From Escherichia coli (GTDB lineage: Bacteria; Pseudomonadota; Gammaproteobacteria; Enterobacterales; Enterobacteriaceae), in assembly GCF_044324875.1 (NCBI RefSeq), contig NZ_CP172186.1: a stretch of 64,000 bases of DNA; one strand, written 5' to 3'. Below the pieces are notes generated by a model. It searched no databases and was not told where the DNA came from. It saw only the letters and a program-made list of their open reading frames with translations. The stretch's first letter is position 1; each line of letters begins with the position of its first letter. This document shows positions 6,488 through 50,309 of the stretch, piece by piece. A program made the position numbers and the translations under genes.

Positions 6488-6643
6488 GGGGATTCCTCCA
6501 TAGATGAATGGATAAATTTCGGGATTAAGTCGGGTGGCATGAATGCGAATCAGCGCCGGTAATAACCGGACAGGAATGAATTCAACAGGACATTTTTACA
6601 GAGAAGAGCGAACGGCAGAAGGTGGTGGGAGACAGGTACAAAA

Positions 6644-6680
6644 AAACCGACTGGTGAGGCCGGTTTTTTTGCGATTCCGG
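6644..6680. terminator. putative bidirectional intrinsic terminator (A7-CCG..CGG-T7 hairpin)
   Basis: aaaaaaaccgactggtgaggccggttttttt: short GC-anchored stem flanked by A-run and T-run; lies between IS21 end and trbA promoter region. Confidence 0.4.
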
Positions 6681-6797
6681 GGTGGAGTTGGTGGCTCTGA
6701 CCGGAGGAAGTCTCTTTTCAGCTAACAATGAGAGAGCTGTTGTGACAGGCAATGTAAGAGTAAGCAGCAGTGATTTCCTCCATTGACGGAGAAACGG

Positions 6798-11964: not shown

Positions 11965-12406
11965 TCAACAGGCTTAATGCTGTCCAGGCGCAGTCTGCTC
12001 AGACTGTCGTGGCTGCCACAGCGGCGTCCAGTGCTTTTGCTGTAGCACTCCTGCCCCCTGATACACCATGCCGTTGGCGTTTCGTAGAGGCTGACACGTC
12101 GGGTTTTATCTTTAATGATGAGAAGCCCGGTGTGAGTTTTTGTCTTTTTCATCGGTGGGGTACAAACGCAGAAATTTTGTTGTCATTACATCATCAGTTT
12201 TAGCCTGCAGAGACGCTGAAAAATCAGCGTTTTCAGACCCTGTTCAGGTTAGTGAATATTCTTGCCTGGCCTTTCGGCAATATCAATCCCCTGATGTGTG
12301 CACACGTAGTCACTTTCCGGCTTTATTTCTGTCCCTGACACAAAATACGTGGTGGCATGAAAAGGATTGTGGCGGACAGGAAAACGATTAGAATAGCGGC
12401 GGGCGC

Positions 12407-12700
12407 TTGAGGCTGTATGCCGAAAGCGTTTTGTGGACGGCATGTAGCAGAAAGCCCCAGGCGATTTTTTTATCAATCAACCCAGGGCCCACTGTAATGC
12501 CTAGACAACATTATAGTAGCCCGATGACGGCCGAAAGGCAATGGAGGGGCTGCGATGCCACAACGAACGTTTTTAATGATGTTAATCGTCGTCTGTGTGA
12601 CGATACTGTGTTTTGTCTGGATGGTGAGGGATTCGCTTTGCGGATTTCGTATCGAGCAGGGAAATACGGTGCTTGTGGCAACGTTAGCCTACGAAGTTAA
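12407..12700 (+). CDS. pndC: pndC-like (mok-equivalent) overlapping reading frame of pnd locus
   Basis: ORF overlaps pndA in another frame, as in hok/mok-type loci. Confidence 0.45.
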   Translation: MRLYAESVLWTACSRKPQAIFLSINPGPTVMPRQHYSSPMTAERQWRGCDATTNVFNDVNRRLCDDTVFCLDGEGFALRISYRAGKYGACGNVSLRS

Positions 12701-44827: not shown

Positions 44828-45148
44828 ATGAAAATTAAACAGCATAAAGAAAAACTGGAGATTATAAGGGATATTATTCGAGAGACGCTGTTGGGTAATG
44901 CTGCTCTTATTGTTCTGGCAGCCATGGTTCCGGTTGTACTGGTGAAACCATGGGATTCGATGACATTTATTTTTATGGGGGCCGTGTGTGTTTCTTTTGC
45001 AGTCATTCTGTTTTGGCTGGTTTATATAGTTTGTTTGTATATAGGAACGCTTGTAAAGAATATTTTTATAAGGATTTTTGCTTTTTCTATTTGGGCCCTT
45101 TCTGCTGAGGGGGCAATTATTTATAACATGATAAAGATATTATCATAG
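44828..45148 (+). CDS. hypothetical small membrane protein (106 aa) in low-GC islet
   Basis: Three predicted TM helices; opposite strand to all neighbours; AT-rich context. Confidence 0.4.
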   Translation: MKIKQHKEKLEIIRDIIRETLLGNAALIVLAAMVPVVLVKPWDSMTFIFMGAVCVSFAVILFWLVYIVCLYIGTLVKNIFIRIFAFSIWALSAEGAIIYNMIKILS

Positions 45149-45239
45149 AAAAGTTGTTTATATATTGGCTCTATGTAAAAAGAATGGTACCTCTGCCAGA
45201 GTTCCCGGCGTTATTTTTATGTGTTGGGGCCATGAATGT

Positions 45240-45560
45240 TTATTTGGCATCCCTTATCTCGCCCATTAGCAGGCGGATACGCAGCCAGGTGTCATGATCC
45301 AGAACAGGTGATGGTGTTACCATGCAAGCACAGTGCCCGATGGCGAGCGTATCAAGGAAGCGTTTTGCATCGCTGGCACTTTCATATTCACCAGTATGGA
45401 TCAACATCCACCTTTGCCCCAACGCTGATTCGGTGTGAATTGGTTGCGAGAATGCGATTGTGTAAACGTCTTCAATTGTAACGATACGATTATTATCCGC
45501 AGTGGCTGCACGGGAGGATAAGTGTTTCATAAAGGGTCTCATAGCGTTAATTTTGAACAA
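45240..45560 (-). CDS. hypothetical protein (106 aa) immediately downstream of rci
   Basis: 12-bp gap after rci stop; no motif. Confidence 0.4.
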   Translation of the reverse strand: MFKINAMRPFMKHLSSRAATADNNRIVTIEDVYTIAFSQPIHTESALGQRWMLIHTGEYESASDAKRFLDTLAIGHCACMVTPSPVLDHDTWLRIRLLMGEIRDAK

Positions 45561-45571
45561 AAATTATTTGT

Positions 45572-46741
45572 TCAGGAGGAGGATATGAAAATACTGTTCG
45601 CTTTTGTCATGAACTGGCTGTTTGTTAACGGACAAATCATGACCCGTTCATCAATGTTTGCGGGTAGCTCGCCTGGTGTGGGGACGCGTTCACCCCGCTG
45701 AGCAGCCTGGGCCAGTGCGCGCAGCAACAATACGCTGGCGTGAGATATTGCCAGTTCCCGGGTTTCAGCACGGCTTTCAAGGTCGAAATCGTGCAGTGTC
45801 ACAATGAACACTCCGTTTCTGTTTCTGACAGTTGCAGGGTAGGGAACAAAATAAGGGGAAATTTTGCTGGTCTGTTTACGCCTTGCATCGAGTTTACTGA
45901 CCAGGTGATATGCCCGGAGATGTGTGTACCGTTTCAACATGTTCAGGGAGCGGTGACCGGAAATGGCTGCAATCTCCATAACGTTCAGTGTGCCGAGCTC
46001 GAACAGACGGCTGATGGCCTCATGGCGGAGATCGTGAAAATGCAGATTTTCTATTTTCAGATCCAGAAGAGCGGTACGCCAGGCGCTTTTGAAACCGGAC
46101 GAGGTGTAATTGAACACATTGCCGTTTATCTGTTGTGGCAGAATTTGCAGGTAGTTACGTGCTTTCCGGGAGAGTGGTACGTCGCGTGGTGAGCCATTTT
46201 TCGTTTCAGGAAGATGCGCCACGCCGTGCTGCAAATCGAGGTGTTCCCAGCGTAATGAGAGAATTTCTCCCTGGCGCATTGCTGTTTCCAGAGCCAGATG
46301 GAAGATAACGTAGAGCTGCGGATTTTTGTCCCTGAAATAGCGGGAAAGGCGGCGTTCTTCACCAGAAGTCAGTCGGCGGTCGCGGCCATTACTGATTTTC
46401 GGTTTTCGGACCAGTTCAACAGGATTCATACGGCATGTTCCCCATTCCACACGGGCGATATTGAATAATGATGATAAAAGGGCAAGTTCAAGACGGACGG
46501 TATTTCCGGTGATTTGACGCCCTGTTCGTGGGTTAATTTGAGCTAAACGCTGATCCCGGTAACCGGCGATATCAATGGTAGTGATTTCATCCATATAGCG
46601 CTCGGCCATAGGGTGACGTTTAATCACATTGACGCGATAAAACTCCTGCAGATGACCTTTTTTATGGACGGAAACGGTTTTCAGGTATTTGTCCAGCGCC
46701 CGGTTGAGAGTCATTTTGCGAATTTTGATTTTTCGAAACAT
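45572..46741 (-). CDS. rci: shufflon-specific tyrosine recombinase Rci
   Basis: Integrase-family motifs ..[16 protein letters not shown]..; adjacent to 19-bp shufflon repeats; start placed downstream of the repeat at 46804 (track ORF extends to 46810). Confidence 0.85.
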
Positions 46742-46803
46742 ATCTGCCTTCCACGATAAAAACGGGGAAGGTAGGAATAGTGAAACGGAAATGCAATATC
46801 GCC

Positions 46804-46822
46804 GTGCCAATCCGGTTCGTGG
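46804..46822 (+). repeat. shufflon 19-bp repeat gtgccaatccggttcgtgg
   Basis: Read directly. Confidence 0.9.
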
Positions 46823-47352
46823 ATTAGGGTATCAGGTAGCACTGTTCTGACAGGAAAAATCGCAAATGGAGAACGACTACCTTTGCCGTCTGGTTTTTCT
46901 GCCAGCCAGTGTACCTGGAGCGTCAGCAATGCTGAAAACCCGCATGGCTGGAAGCCAAATTACTTCGCAGGTTCTGTTGCGACATATGATTCGAACAGGA
47001 TTGTGAAGTGTGGTTACTACGATGAATACAATTTTCACGGCGGTACAAACAGGAACGACCTGACGGGGAAATGTAGTTACATTGTGGTTTGCCAGTAAAT
47101 CACTTTGTCATTGGCAAATGGCATGTACAGTTATTTTTCCAATGATGTGTTCTGTCGTATCGCAATAGCCATACCAGGCATTATTGTTTACAGGTATTGA
47201 ACGGACAAGCCAGATAAAGCCAATTCCAGAGCTGCATTCTGCACCACCCCCGATCACCTTCTTACCCATTGGGCAGGTGGCAGTAGCACCAGGCCAGCGG
47301 AGTTTTGATGCTGTTACTTTGACGATTTCAATATCGCCTTTTCCTGCATTTT

Positions 47353-47371
47353 TCCACGAACCGGATTGGCA
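47353..47371 (-). repeat. shufflon 19-bp repeat (inverted; exact reverse complement of 46804..46822)
   Basis: Read directly. Confidence 0.9.
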
Positions 47372-47379
47372 CGGAGGCC

Positions 47380-47398
47380 AGTGCCAATCCGGTATCTG
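47380..47398 (+). repeat. shufflon 19-bp repeat gtgccaatccggtatctgg
   Basis: Read directly; 8 bp from previous repeat. Confidence 0.9.
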
Positions 47399-47848
47399 GA
47401 CAACGACAAAAATGAACTTCACTACCAGTACATACAATATCGGGAAAAATACTCGTAATCTGAGCATTGGCGTACATGCGTACTGCTCGTGGACATACCT
47501 TAATGGCTCGCCTTTTGGTGGTTTTCAGCAGATATACGCCGACCAAAACAAGGTTTGGTATGTGAATAATTATGCGTGGGGAAATTATGAGTCCGGTGGC
47601 ACAATTACAGTGACATGCCTCAACCTTCCTGGTGCCGGAATCTAACCAAAAGGGCAACAGTAAGCATCGACGTGCTCTTCATCAATACCATCTCCGATGC
47701 CGTACATTCTTGTACCTGTCATGACGTACCCGGCAGGGCACTGAATCGGCTTGTAATAAATAGAACCTCCACTTCTGCCACCGATAAAATGTGCGGAGGT
47801 CGCTTCATACCATTTACAGGCAGAATAGTTCACTTTATTGCCTCCAAG

Positions 47849-47867
47849 CCACAAACCGGATTGGCAC
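47849..47867 (-). repeat. shufflon 19-bp repeat (inverted)
   Basis: Read directly. Confidence 0.9.
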
Positions 47868-47875
47868 TGGCCTCC

Positions 47876-47894
47876 GTGCCAATCCGGTGTGTGG
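47876..47894 (+). repeat. shufflon 19-bp repeat gtgccaatccggtgtgtgg
   Basis: Read directly; 8 bp from previous repeat. Confidence 0.9.
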
Positions 47895-48270
47895 GTTGGC
47901 TTTGAATCCTACCCTGTGGGAAGCCCTATCCCGTGGCCATCTGCCACTCCTCCACAAGGCTATCTGTTGATGAACGGCCAGTCGTTTTCCTGTTCCCGGT
48001 ATCCTCAGCTTGCCCGTGCTTATCCTGGCTGTAAATTGCCCGATCTGCGCGGTGTTTTTATCCGTGGCTGGGATAACGGGAAGGGACTTGATGGTGATCG
48101 GAACAGACAACTCCTGAGTTATCAGGCCGATCAATCAGGCGTCTATCACGAACGTGGCGGATGGCTGAAAGGGCATCATAGTGGTATGCCATACTGGGCA
48201 CAGGGGAGTACCACAGAAATGCGTCCCAAAAATATTGCATTCAACTACATTGTTAAAGCCAGCTAGGGAC

Positions 48271-49605
48271 TCACATCTGATAGGCATACACAGAGAAAAC
48301 ACCGTTACCACAGGCGTAATTTTGTGTTGGTCTGGAGATGATTTGATATGACGCTCCCACTGGCACGGCAAATGAAATAAATGCTGTCTTTCCGTAGGAG
48401 GGGTTATTGCTGGCATTCATACCAATGAAAGCGCCGTTCACATAGCCCTGAAGATTTGATGTGTTGGCGCAATCACCGCCACCGGCACCATTTCCACCGG
48501 AAGCGTACACAAACAAAGTTCCTCTGCCGTTATTTCTCCCGTTAAATGTTCCCCGGTGAGAACCCAGATTGCTGTAACTTCCGTCAGGTGCACCAATCGT
48601 TCGCCACACACCGGATTGGCACGAAAGTATTGCCCCTTTACTGTCGCGGCCTACAAGTCCGTCCGGTGAGCAGGAAGTACCTGCGGTGGCTGTTTTATCC
48701 AGCTGTAAATACTCACCCGTGGAAAGACGCCCCTCAGACCGGACAGTTCCACCACTGACTTTTCCTCCTTTGAGCTCTCCTTCGGTTGTGATCCCTTTGT
48801 TGTTAACAGCACGTATCCATTGGCTGTCCGTCATGGTGAAACCGCCTCCGTGCGTCGTGTTCATCCACCCCTTGTTGTTTCTGGTGATAAGCCAGCCGTC
48901 TTCGCTGGTTATATCGCCTTTCACCGTGGCTTTCTGACCATTGAGGTTACCGGCGTTATTGATGTCATTTCCGCCCATGTTGATAGCTGTGTGCATCTGG
49001 TTCAGCTCTGATCTCCCCGGGACCTGGAAACGATACAACCTGTCGCTTTCCTGCAGATCATCACCCGTCATGACGACGGCAATGTGACCTGCCGAACAGG
49101 TGAGTCCGTAATCCCCCGGTTTGTCTGTCCAGGCGCCGAATGCGCCGGTTGCTGTTCCGTTTTTACCAATATAACCACCCAGCCCGGGAAGCTGTCCTGC
49201 CACACTGCGCAGACCATCTTCTTTGATATTCTGCCCCCCTGTTGAGCAGGTCAGGGCTTCAAGACGTCCTGTAGTCTGGTTACGGCGGATACCCGTGATA
49301 TAACTCTGCCCAAACGGAGAATGATTAAATCCCTGTTTCAGGTATCCCTTGCGAATCAAATCATCGGCTGTAAAGTTTGCCGGAAGGCTGCCGTTGTGCA
49401 GAGTGGCATTGTTATCGGCAATGTAATTTCTGGCTGCGGTATTGTAGGCATCTGCATGAGAAGCAGCACTCTGGTAAAGCTGTTCATTCAGCCAGTTTTC
49501 TATTTCGGAATAAATCAGCGGCGTGGCGATACCAATCACTATCAGTCCCGCCAGTATTTCAAGCAGAATAAAACCTTTGTCGTCATCGTGTCTGAACTTT
49601 TTCAC
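48271..49605 (-). CDS. pilV: thin-pilus minor pilin/adhesin PilV (current shufflon configuration)
   Basis: Prepilin-like N-terminus KGFILLEILAGL; constant region joins variable C-terminus at the 19-bp repeat. Confidence 0.9.
   Translation of the reverse strand: MKKFRHDDDKGFILLEILAGLIVIGIATPLIYSEIENWLNEQLYQSAASHADAYNTAARNYIADNNATLHNGSLPANFTADDLIRKGYLKQGFNHSPFGQSYITGIRRNQTTGRLEALTCSTGGQNIKEDGLRSVAGQLPGLGGYIGKNGTATGAFGAWTDKPGDYGLTCSAGHIAVVMTGDDLQESDRLYRFQVPGRSELNQMHTAINMGGNDINNAGNLNGQKATVKGDITSEDGWLITRNNKGWMNTTHGGGFTMTDSQWIRAVNNKGITTEGELKGGKVSGGTVRSEGRLSTGEYLQLDKTATAGTSCSPDGLVGRDSKGAILSCQSGVWRTIGAPDGSYSNLGSHRGTFNGRNNGRGTLFVYASGGNGAGGGDCANTSNLQGYVNGAFIGMNASNNPSYGKTAFISFAVPVGASYQIISRPTQNYACGNGVFSVYAYQM
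48604..48622 (-). repeat. shufflon 19-bp repeat (inverted) inside expressed pilV
   Basis: Encodes the CQSGVW junction of the current PilV. Confidence 0.9.
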
Positions 49606-50309
49606 GTGAATATCTCCGAAGTGCGGAAAACGGAATCAGGGAGGAGGGTTAGTGCATACAGTGATGCGCAGAGAAACGGGGCGAACGGCAGTGCCTGCTG
49701 ATGTCTGTGACGGCAGAAGAGGAGGATAAACAGAAATGCCCCGGAAGCTGCGGCGGTGATTAGCAGCGGCGTGTGTTGTGGCTGTGTCCACATTGCAATT
49801 CCTGCTATCAGGAATACATCACCAAGGCCGAGTGCTTCTGTTCCTTTTGCCGTTATGAAAAACTGCCGTAGCAGGTATGTCATGCCGAACCAGAGTGATG
49901 CGTTGAGGAGGCTGTATGTGAGCTCCTCCAGGCTGTACCTGAACGCTGCCCCCAGAACAATCAGTGAAAGCGTGAATATCCGGGGAAGCCGACAGACGGC
50001 GATGTCCGTCAGCGTCATTACAGTTAATAATCCCGTCAGAATGGAAAGGAATAACAGCCCCGTGGCTTCAACACCATATGCGCCGTTGAGGCTGACACTC
50101 ACTATGGCCAGAAGGCAACACACGTACACCACCGGCCTGGGCGGCCGGGTGTCGTGTACTGCTGACAGGTAGAGAGCGGCGGTGATGTATGCAATATAAA
50201 GAATAACCGCCAGGATGATGATTATTATTGTCATGCTCAGTAATGCGCTCACCGTCACCTCGTATTTATTAATATTGTCTGAAATACCGGTTGTGGATTT
50301 TTCGGGCAT
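49602..50309 (-). CDS. pilU: prepilin peptidase PilU
   Basis: 235 aa polytopic membrane protein; position between pilT and pilV. Confidence 0.75.
   Translation of the reverse strand: MPEKSTTGISDNINKYEVTVSALLSMTIIIIILAVILYIAYITAALYLSAVHDTRPPRPVVYVCCLLAIVSVSLNGAYGVEATGLLFLSILTGLLTVMTLTDIAVCRLPRIFTLSLIVLGAAFRYSLEELTYSLLNASLWFGMTYLLRQFFITAKGTEALGLGDVFLIAGIAMWTQPQHTPLLITAAASGAFLFILLFCRHRHQQALPFAPFLCASLYALTLLPDSVFRTSEIFT

Follow-up and report, generated by a model that had tools for sequence, protein, structure and literature searches.

The region at positions 46804-48622 of the analysed DNA (a 64,000-nucleotide stretch of the Escherichia coli contig NZ_CP172186.1, hereafter the window) is almost certainly a multiple-inversion shufflon of the Rci/sfx type, which closes the pil operon of an IncK2/Z conjugative plasmid of the I-complex at its 3' end and is organised in the A/BD/C layout of R721. 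The shufflon is real, of textbook type and already known, its layout matching that of R721 and of many sequenced IncK2/Z plasmids. Four features that define such elements were found together: inverted sfx sites with the GTGCCAATCCGG arm, an adjacent rci gene, a pilV gene with the Shufflon_N domain, and a position at the end of the pil operon.

Inverted repeats and junctions

A pattern search of the window returned six exact matches to GTGCCAATCCGGTNNNTGG (0 mismatches), three per strand, at 46804(+), 47354(-), 47381(+), 47849(-), 47876(+), and 48604(-); the six copies of alternating orientation reported in the preliminary description were thus correct to the base. Even with three mismatches allowed, only 0.83 matches were expected by chance, and six or more sites occurred in none of 100 shuffles. 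A separate repeat finder returned identical sfx sites. Each site contained the 12-bp arm GTGCCAATCCGG, the same as in R64 and R721, and a 7-bp core TNNNTGG, following the arm/core model of PMC11852207. Four core types were recognised, named according to PMC5350095 and matching the sequences given there: e (tcg), f (atc), g (gtg), and h (ttg). The repeat-e core TTCGTGG was carried by sfx 1 (46804..46822, +), at the rci-proximal end of the shufflon, and by sfx 2 (47354..47372, -). Sfx 3 (47381..47399, +) had the repeat-f core TATCTGG and sfx 4 (47849..47867, -) the repeat-h core TTTGTGG, while sfx 5 (47876..47894, +) and sfx 6 (48604..48622, -) shared the repeat-g core TGTGTGG, the last site being joined in frame with the constant region of pilV. 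These types, in the pairs e-e, g-g, and h-f, are those of the IncK2/Z shufflon.

The two 46-nt junctions were mutual inverted copies with 91% complementarity, as determined with the repeat finder. Their 8-bp spacers, ggaggcca at 47373..47380 (the same as the R721 spacer) and tggcctcc at 47868..47875, are exact reverse complements of each other, as had been read initially. The accompanying proposal of a past inversion spanning a junction also held up: group inversions yield opposite spacers, all four combinations of spacer orientation occur in relatives, and the spacers of R64 and R721 are likewise opposite. With segment identities of 75-85% and only eight positions to compare, conservation of the spacers between the window and R721 is not significant on its own.

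When the whole window was scanned with the 13-mer GTGCCAATCCGGT, allowing up to three mismatches, no sites with one or two mismatches were found, and every three-mismatch match lay outside the shufflon. No seventh repeat was therefore overlooked in the window, and the additional 19-bp copies that might have restored the standard arrangement, a possibility raised in the preliminary description, did not appear. The idea, prompted by inverted repeat I2 of the repeat finder, that a relic of the pilV constant end is preserved in the rci-proximal flank was rejected, as only 9-10 of 30 flanking bases matched in the window, R64, and R721, which is chance level.

Recombinase, pilus genes, and alternative PilV tips

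The rci gene (45572..46741, -), separated from sfx 1 by 62 bp, encodes a shufflon-specific tyrosine recombinase of 389 aa, identified from its ORF and a match to Pfam Phage_integrase (E 1.4e-24, residues 123-276). About 110 residues beyond this domain aligned to the R64 and R721 Rci proteins as a C-terminal extension, and the conserved motifs, including KRYTH, were present. Identity amounted to 89% with R721 Rci over 374 aa and to 75% with R64 Rci, and the protein was one residue apart from the annotated integrase of NZ_CP069173. The pilV gene as currently assembled (48271..49605, -) encodes 444 aa, composed of the constant region and tip T6. Its Shufflon_N matches (Pfam, E 5e-60 and 2e-47) covered residues 37-332, the CQSG motif started at residue 329, and the constant region ended at the sfx site; identity was 57% to R721 PilV and 48% to R64 PilV.

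Within the pil operon, pilV is immediately preceded by pilU (49602..50309, -), assigned to a prepilin (A24) peptidase from its ORF and the annotation of NZ_CP069173. The upstream ORFs matched genes annotated in the same plasmid as A24 peptidase, lytic transglycosylase, major pilin, PilR-like, and PilQ-like. The shufflon thus closes a pil operon for a thin pilus (type IVb), a context annotated in NZ_CP069173, which is 99.4% identical. A PK-repZ replicon element was located at 63839-63988, and the best plasmid matches were typed IncK2/Z. Scanning positions 45000-50000 for promoters and terminators gave no enrichment over shuffles.

Alignment to R64 and R721, proposed in the preliminary description as a check, identified the three segments as homologues of BD, C, and A. 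The six convergent, CQSG-starting tips described there were also recovered: all six sfx-initiated frames were open (97, 87, 87, 74, 129, and 116 aa, including CQSG), with one convergent pair per segment. Tip names follow the RefSeq products assigned to identical sequences in relatives, together with the homology to R64 and R721; NCBIfam HMMs gave no matches to the six isolated tips, so the assignments of B versus B' and of C versus C' are approximate.

Segment 1 (46804..47372, 569 bp) is the homologue of R721 BD, with 74.6% nucleotide identity over the full 569 bp. It carries the D'-like silent tip T1 (46805..47098, +, 97 aa), with 87.6% amino acid identity to the R721 tip (L015 14446(-)) and 79.6% to the ORF of the R64 D segment; the T1 sequence bears the product label shufflon protein D' in NZ_MZ062604. 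The opposing B'-like silent tip T2 (47108..47371, -, 87 aa; 65.5% amino acid identity to R721, 56.3% to R64) is labelled shufflon protein B in NZ_MG825371. Segment 2 (47381..47867, 487 bp) is a C homologue, with 85.2% nucleotide identity to R721 C and 77.5% to R64 segment 2. Its C-like silent tip T3 (47382..47645, +, 87 aa), labelled shufflon protein C in NZ_MG838206, is 94.3% identical in amino acids to R721 and 82.6% to R64, and the other C-segment ORF, silent tip T4 (47642..47866, -, 74 aa), shows 82.9% and 81.3% identity, respectively. Segment 3 (47876..48622, 747 bp) is an A homologue with A' replaced, and only its A half aligned to A segments (71% nucleotide identity for R721, 67% for R64). 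This half encodes the A-like tip T6 (48271..48622, -, 116 aa; PilV residues 329-444), in frame with pilV. This tip is 77.6% identical in amino acids to its R721 counterpart and 67.2% to that of R64, and it carries the label prepilin, shufflon protein A in relatives. The remaining silent tip, T5 (47877..48266, +, 129 aa), contains a phage tail-collar domain and is without a counterpart in R64 or R721.

In the proposed mechanism, Rci would recombine any two inverted sfx sites, each consisting of the conserved 12-bp right arm, the 7-bp core, and, within the segment, a left arm that is not conserved, and would thereby flip single segments or groups of segments. The two 8-bp junction spacers would flip in any group inversion that spans them. 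The CQSG(x)W join is encoded in every sfx, so the half-segment adjoining the pilV constant region would become the tip at the C-terminus of the PilV adhesin, with six alternatives. In the window copy the A-like tip is the one expressed, as the preliminary description had also read it; the 444-aa pilV ORF and the frame from the 48604(-) site form one uninterrupted reading frame. Which recipients R64 reaches in liquid mating is determined by its PilV tips (PMC5430464), and the tips described here would, by analogy, set recipient (LPS) specificity.

Tip T5 matched Pfam Collar (PF07484, E 4.1e-13) and was 42-47% identical to the C-termini of tail fibres from lambdoid, P1-like, and other phages; compared with the R64 and R721 tips, it gave no match. 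Its presence in place of A' is the sole departure from R721 and R64 to be named. At an identity of at least 95%, it occurs in 408 plasmid records. The chances seem about even to us that T5 represents a receptor-binding module of a phage tail fibre captured into a plasmid shufflon. In phages, such modules are followed by a tail-fibre assembly chaperone. If the capture is real and T5 works as a PilV adhesin without the chaperone, IncK2/Z and related I-complex plasmids would gain a recipient specificity beyond the seven characterised R64 tips, and modules would be swapped directly between the host-range switches of phages and the mating-range switches of plasmids. This tail-collar PilV tip, widespread in I-complex plasmids, is the only point of modest biological interest in the region.

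Arrangements among sister plasmids

The window and eight IncK2/Z records with the same three segments displayed nine distinct configurations of order, orientation, and spacers, with breakpoints at sfx sites only, and each of the nine can be reached in 2-7 legal inversions. A breadth-first search reached all 192 possible configurations by legal inversions, and the notion that segment order constrains spacer orientation was accordingly dropped, as there is no invariant. Six sfx sites were present in 11 of 13 IncK2/Z relatives sampled, making this the commonest form; some relatives had a fourth, e-e segment with eight sfx (L003) or fewer segments with four sfx (L008), and in most relatives the h core was converted to g, with an h-to-g-plus-1 variant hinting that exchange may reach into the left arm.

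The order and orientation shown by the window might be a product of assembly, that is, a consensus or chimera of co-existing isomers and not one real molecule, which we regard as unlikely. Shufflons are among the hardest regions to assemble, with isomers co-existing within a clone (PMC5430464), and multiple forms were reported in the pCT assembly (PMC3377399). Mis-assembly of shufflons from short reads is recorded in PMC5430464 and by Brouwer 2015, cited in PMC5350095; the order in the window may accordingly be one isomer among many or the choice of the assembler. Against this, the configuration is fully legal, with strictly alternating sfx sites and intact junctions and ORFs, and since all 192 configurations are legally reachable, nothing marks the window arrangement as chimeric. 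The nature of the element would be unchanged in either case.

A frozen relic, in which repeats and cassettes are kept but switching has ceased in this lineage of the plasmid, is far less probable still. Inactivation of shufflons through loss of rci or insertion of an IS is documented in related plasmids (PMC3377399), and relative L008 has four sfx sites without an annotated rci. In the window, by contrast, the rci ORF is full-length, differs by one residue from the sister-plasmid copy, and keeps its conserved motifs, all six sfx sites are exact, and all six tips are open. Moreover, nine arrangements on backbones at least 99% identical imply recent activity. An active Rci/sfx shufflon is the preferred reading, with no observation speaking against it, and judging from the sister records and the R64 literature, inversion is probably ongoing in the population of the window's plasmid.

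Beyond correct annotation, the result matters little; it confirms that the window belongs to an IncK2/Z I-complex conjugative plasmid with a thin-pilus shufflon that looks functional. Names of independent genes, for example phage tail protein or hypothetical protein, should not be given to the silent cassettes. The region is easily assembled ambiguously, and where otherwise identical plasmids differ in it, the differences should not be taken as phylogenetic signal.

Comparison with known switches

For the IncI1 plasmid R64, NC_005014 was used in place of AP005147. The 12-bp sfx arm, the TNNNTGG core, and the gene order pilV-shufflon-rci were shared with the window, as were back-to-back sfx pairs with 8-bp spacers in both orientations (TGGCCTAC/GTAGGCCA in R64, one nucleotide different), and five of the six tips had R64 homologues with 56-83% identity. 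R64 has seven sfx and four segments (A-D), whereas the window has six and three, a difference due to one extra, unpaired internal sfx in R64. The extra site splits off a single-ORF D segment in R64, whereas in the window D' shares its segment with the B'-like ORF; neither this seventh site nor a separate D segment was found, no further site within two mismatches of the 13-mer being present in the window. Two R64 tips, one of 85 aa (L004 28209+) and A', gave no match in the window. The preliminary description was therefore right that the layout differs from R64, but the unusualness it implied did not stand, given the identical layout of R721, the same junction design in R64, and the six sfx of 11 of 13 relatives.

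R721 carries exactly the window's layout. Three-segment shufflons are on record for ColIb-P9 and R721 (PMC5430464), and the R721 segments are given as A, BD, and C in the summary of Komano et al. (1990) contained in that paper. Window and R721 share six sfx in three inverted pairs (+ - / 8 bp / + - / 8 bp / + -), identical 12-bp arms, identical spacers (GGAGGCCA/TGGCCTCC), homologous BD (569 bp in both), C, and A segments with the B' and D' ORFs together on BD, and a similar rci-proximal flank. They differ in the backbone, which is IncK2/Z with IncI1-type (MPF_I) transfer in the window and IncI2 (MPF_T) in R721, in the core triplets (e, f, g, and h versus ACG, ATC, GTG, and CGG), and in the PilV constant region, which is only 57% identical. 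The A tip is present but A' (73 aa) is absent, swapped for the 129-aa tail-collar tip, and the A segment is consequently 747 bp long in the window and 574 bp in R721. A structurally novel architecture, to which the sfx and segment counts differing from R64 and the T5 tip without R64 or R721 counterpart could point, is the least probable reading and was refuted by the identity of layout and spacers with R721, the sfx counts of the relatives, published IncK2 shufflons with these repeat types (PMC5350095), and the 408 records of T5, PilV-collar fusions having already been published (PMC9881135).

Near-identical elements are found in IncK2/Z plasmids such as NZ_CP069173 and pEGY2, with the same four repeat types (e, f, g, and h), segments at least 99% identical, rci and pilV differing by 1-2 aa, and the same three segments permuted otherwise; only the current order and orientation set the window apart. 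Seiffert et al. (2017; PMC5350095) had already described IncK2 shufflons, in which the repeats number 2-8 and belong to types e, f, g, and h.

A more distant parallel is offered by the Gin switch of phage Mu and the Cin switch of P1, in which an invertible segment likewise exchanges the receptor-binding C-terminus of a fibre protein, and the resemblance extends to T5 through its tail-collar domain and its 42-47% identity to phage tail-fibre C-termini. Gin and Cin rely on a serine invertase and one segment with symmetric sites, whereas in the window the recombinase is of the tyrosine type, the sfx sites are asymmetric, and there are several segments.

Recombination sites, reading frames and recombinase

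A pattern search for GTGCCAATCCGGTNNNTGG, the sequence of the Rci recombination sites (sfx), found exactly six copies in 46804-48622, each with 0 mismatches, at 46804(+), 47354(-), 47381(+), 47849(-), 47876(+), and 48604(-). Even when 3 mismatches were allowed, the chance expectation was 0.83, and six copies were reached in 0 of 100 shuffles. Scanning the whole window with the invariant 13-mer at up to 3 mismatches gave no site with 1-2 mismatches, and the 3-mismatch matches all lay outside the shufflon; thus, no seventh repeat had been missed. The preliminary description, which proposed six alternating repeats and reverse-complementary 8-bp spacers, was correct on both points. Strands alternate, each of the two internal junctions consists of a (-) site and a (+) site with 8 bp between them, and the spacers ggaggcca (47373-47380) and tggcctcc (47868-47875) are exact reverse complements. 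The six sites were also picked up independently by a repeat finder, with the two 46-nt junctions appearing as inverted copies of each other.

One open frame runs from each sfx into its own segment, and upon translation all six (97, 87, 87, 74, 129, and 116 aa) start with CQSG-x-W and converge in pairs, as had been proposed. The segments are coding almost throughout, on both strands, with paired stop codons 9 nt apart in segment 1 (46804-47372), overlapping by 2 nt in segment 2 (47381-47867), and 4 nt apart in segment 3 (47876-48622). The frame from 48604(-) continues unbroken into a 444-aa pilV ORF (48271..49605(-)), in agreement with the earlier view that the tip at 48271..48622 is the one expressed. 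In PilV, the Pfam Shufflon_N constant region extends to residue 332, and CQSG begins at residue 329.

The rci gene (45572-46741, minus strand), a 389-aa ORF located 62 bp from sfx 1, encodes a Phage_integrase domain and about 110 extra C-terminal residues. The protein retains the recombinase motifs and is 75% identical to the Rci of R64 (IncI1) and 89% identical to that of R721 (IncI2). In R64, Rci bound to the conserved right arm brings in a further monomer, which occupies the variable left arm; strands are exchanged in the 7-bp core, and because the site is asymmetric, only inversion between oppositely oriented sites results (summarized in PMC11852207). The sites, frames, enzyme, and homologies required for this mechanism are all present and intact in the window. 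For this plasmid, we infer current inversion activity, and recipient specificity via LPS recognition.

The silent tip T5 and the plasmid setting

T5, a silent PilV tip of 129 aa (47877-48266), contains a phage tail-collar domain (PF07484, E 4e-13) and shares 42-47% identity with phage tail-fibre C-termini across 92-96% of its length. Such fibres are found, for example, in HK106, P1-like phage-plasmids, and Aeromonas phages, usually with a tail-fibre assembly gene after them. At an identity of at least 95%, T5 occurs in 408 plasmid records, in many of which it is the expressed PilV tip; silent copies are labeled in RefSeq as a free-standing 'phage tail protein'. A PilV-tail-collar fusion has been described as a target of programmed inversion (Milman et al., 2023; PMC9881135). 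T5 is a known kind of tip variant, not a rare one, with a putative receptor-binding role.

Upstream of pilV lie a prepilin peptidase, a lytic transglycosylase, the major pilin, and more pil genes, named after the annotation of a 99.4%-identical locus on K. pneumoniae plasmid pC (NZ_CP069173). The best-matching plasmids were all typed as IncK2/Z, MOBP, and MPF_I, and 2316 plasmid records in all matched the region. Rfam gathering-threshold matches were the PK-repZ pseudoknot of I-complex replication control at the window's end (63839-63988, +), the sok antitoxin RNA of hok/sok (12401-12557, +), AgrB, the antisense RNA of a DinQ-like toxin (6638-6725, -), and the ALIL pseudoknot (22935-23051, +), an IS3-family frameshift element that indicates an IS3-type insertion near 23 kb.

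Configurations among IncK2/Z relatives

Sister plasmids served as a surrogate for reads when judging shuffling, and 13 IncK2/Z relatives were compared. Six sfx were present in 11 of the 13, four in one, and eight in one; the same three segments as in the window occurred in eight. With the window, these eight make nine records and as many distinct configurations, which differ in order, in orientation, or in the way the spacers face; breakpoints fall only at sfx. All four spacer-orientation combinations were present, and a breadth-first search placed every configuration 2-7 legal inversions (between inverted sfx) away from the window's. These legally reachable configurations support the earlier proposal that the flipped spacer records a group inversion across a junction, and show that spacer flips are routine among IncK2/Z relatives. 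IncK2 shufflons with 2-8 repeats of the same four types (core triplets e tcg, f atc, g gtg, and h ttg), paired e-e, g-g, and h-f, were reported by Seiffert et al. (2017; PMC5350095). Eight-repeat forms, such as relative L003, comprise the window's set and one more e-e segment.

Several relatives showed local differences. In NZ_CP123269 (L009) and NZ_CP119733 (L014), a different segment, first or second in the shufflon, substitutes for the window's A segment; it has unlike flanking cores (g and e) and carries a tip resembling R721 A (CQSGVWRTSGSSNG...) along with one that is unmatched (CQSGSWKGNKEKEH...). The BD segment of NZ_CP019253 (L006) has both its tips frameshifted right after the sfx, which could be sequencing error or decay, and pilV is unannotated in this relative. 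NZ_CP080166 (L008) has four sfx only, and its rci is unannotated. The C-segment sfx (sfx 4, 47837-47867) combines core TTTGTGG with left arm CTTGG in the window and relatives L003, L005, and L012, and TGTGTGG with GTTGG in 10 other relatives (e.g. positions 4761-4791 of L001, the locus from NZ_CP069173). The T5 sfx shows the latter combination exactly in its first 12 nt (47888-47899). Both differences occur together, one falling 1 nt beyond the canonical 7-bp core, and with them the tip begins CQSGVWV instead of CQSGLWL; on sequence comparison, two unlike sfx seem to have undergone an exchange or conversion that extended into the left arm.

Comparison with R64 and R721

R64 (NC_005014) has seven sfx, ordered plus, minus, TGGCCTAC, plus, minus, GTAGGCCA, plus, plus, minus. 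Its junctions are likewise back-to-back sfx pairs with an 8-bp spacer, and its two spacers are also oppositely oriented, so the paired-sfx junction of the window is the canonical R64 junction. The difference from R64 noted in the preliminary description lies in the site number, six here versus seven: the sole extra in R64 is an unpaired internal sfx, which splits off a single-ORF D segment. R721 (NC_002525), with six sfx ordered plus, minus, GGAGGCCA, plus, minus, TGGCCTCC, plus, minus, has exactly the window's layout and the same spacer sequences. Sekizuka et al. (PMC5430464) described four segments in R64 (A, B, C, D), three in ColIb-P9 (A, B, C), and three in R721 (A, BD, C), where BD holds B' and D'.

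The segment alignment suggested earlier assigned segments 1, 2, and 3 as homologues of BD, C, and A (A half only). Segment 1 (569 bp, as is R721 BD) is 74.6% identical end to end at the nucleotide level, its D'-like and B'-like tips sharing 87.6% and 65.5% aa identity; segment 2 (487 bp) is 85% identical to R721 C, with tips at 94% and 83% aa. In segment 3 (747 bp), the currently expressed A tip shares 77.6% aa identity with that of R721, whereas the 73-aa A' tip of R64 and R721 is not in the window and T5 takes its place. RefSeq labels on identical sister-plasmid sequences ('shufflon protein D'', 'B', 'C', 'prepilin, shufflon protein A', 'phage tail protein') fit these assignments.

The rci-shufflon-pilV module (45572-49605) is nearer to IncI2 R721 than to IncI1 R64, despite the plasmid's IncI1-type MPF_I transfer system. 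The PilV constant region is 57% identical to that of R721 versus 48% to that of R64, and the rci-proximal flank resembles R721's. This closeness in Rci, PilV, spacers, and flank within an MPF_I plasmid suggests that the thin-pilus tip switch was exchanged as a module. The element is a real shufflon, correctly identified and accurately described from the outset, and it is already known: its junction design from R64, its whole layout from R721, and the exact element from many sequenced IncK2/Z plasmids and the literature.
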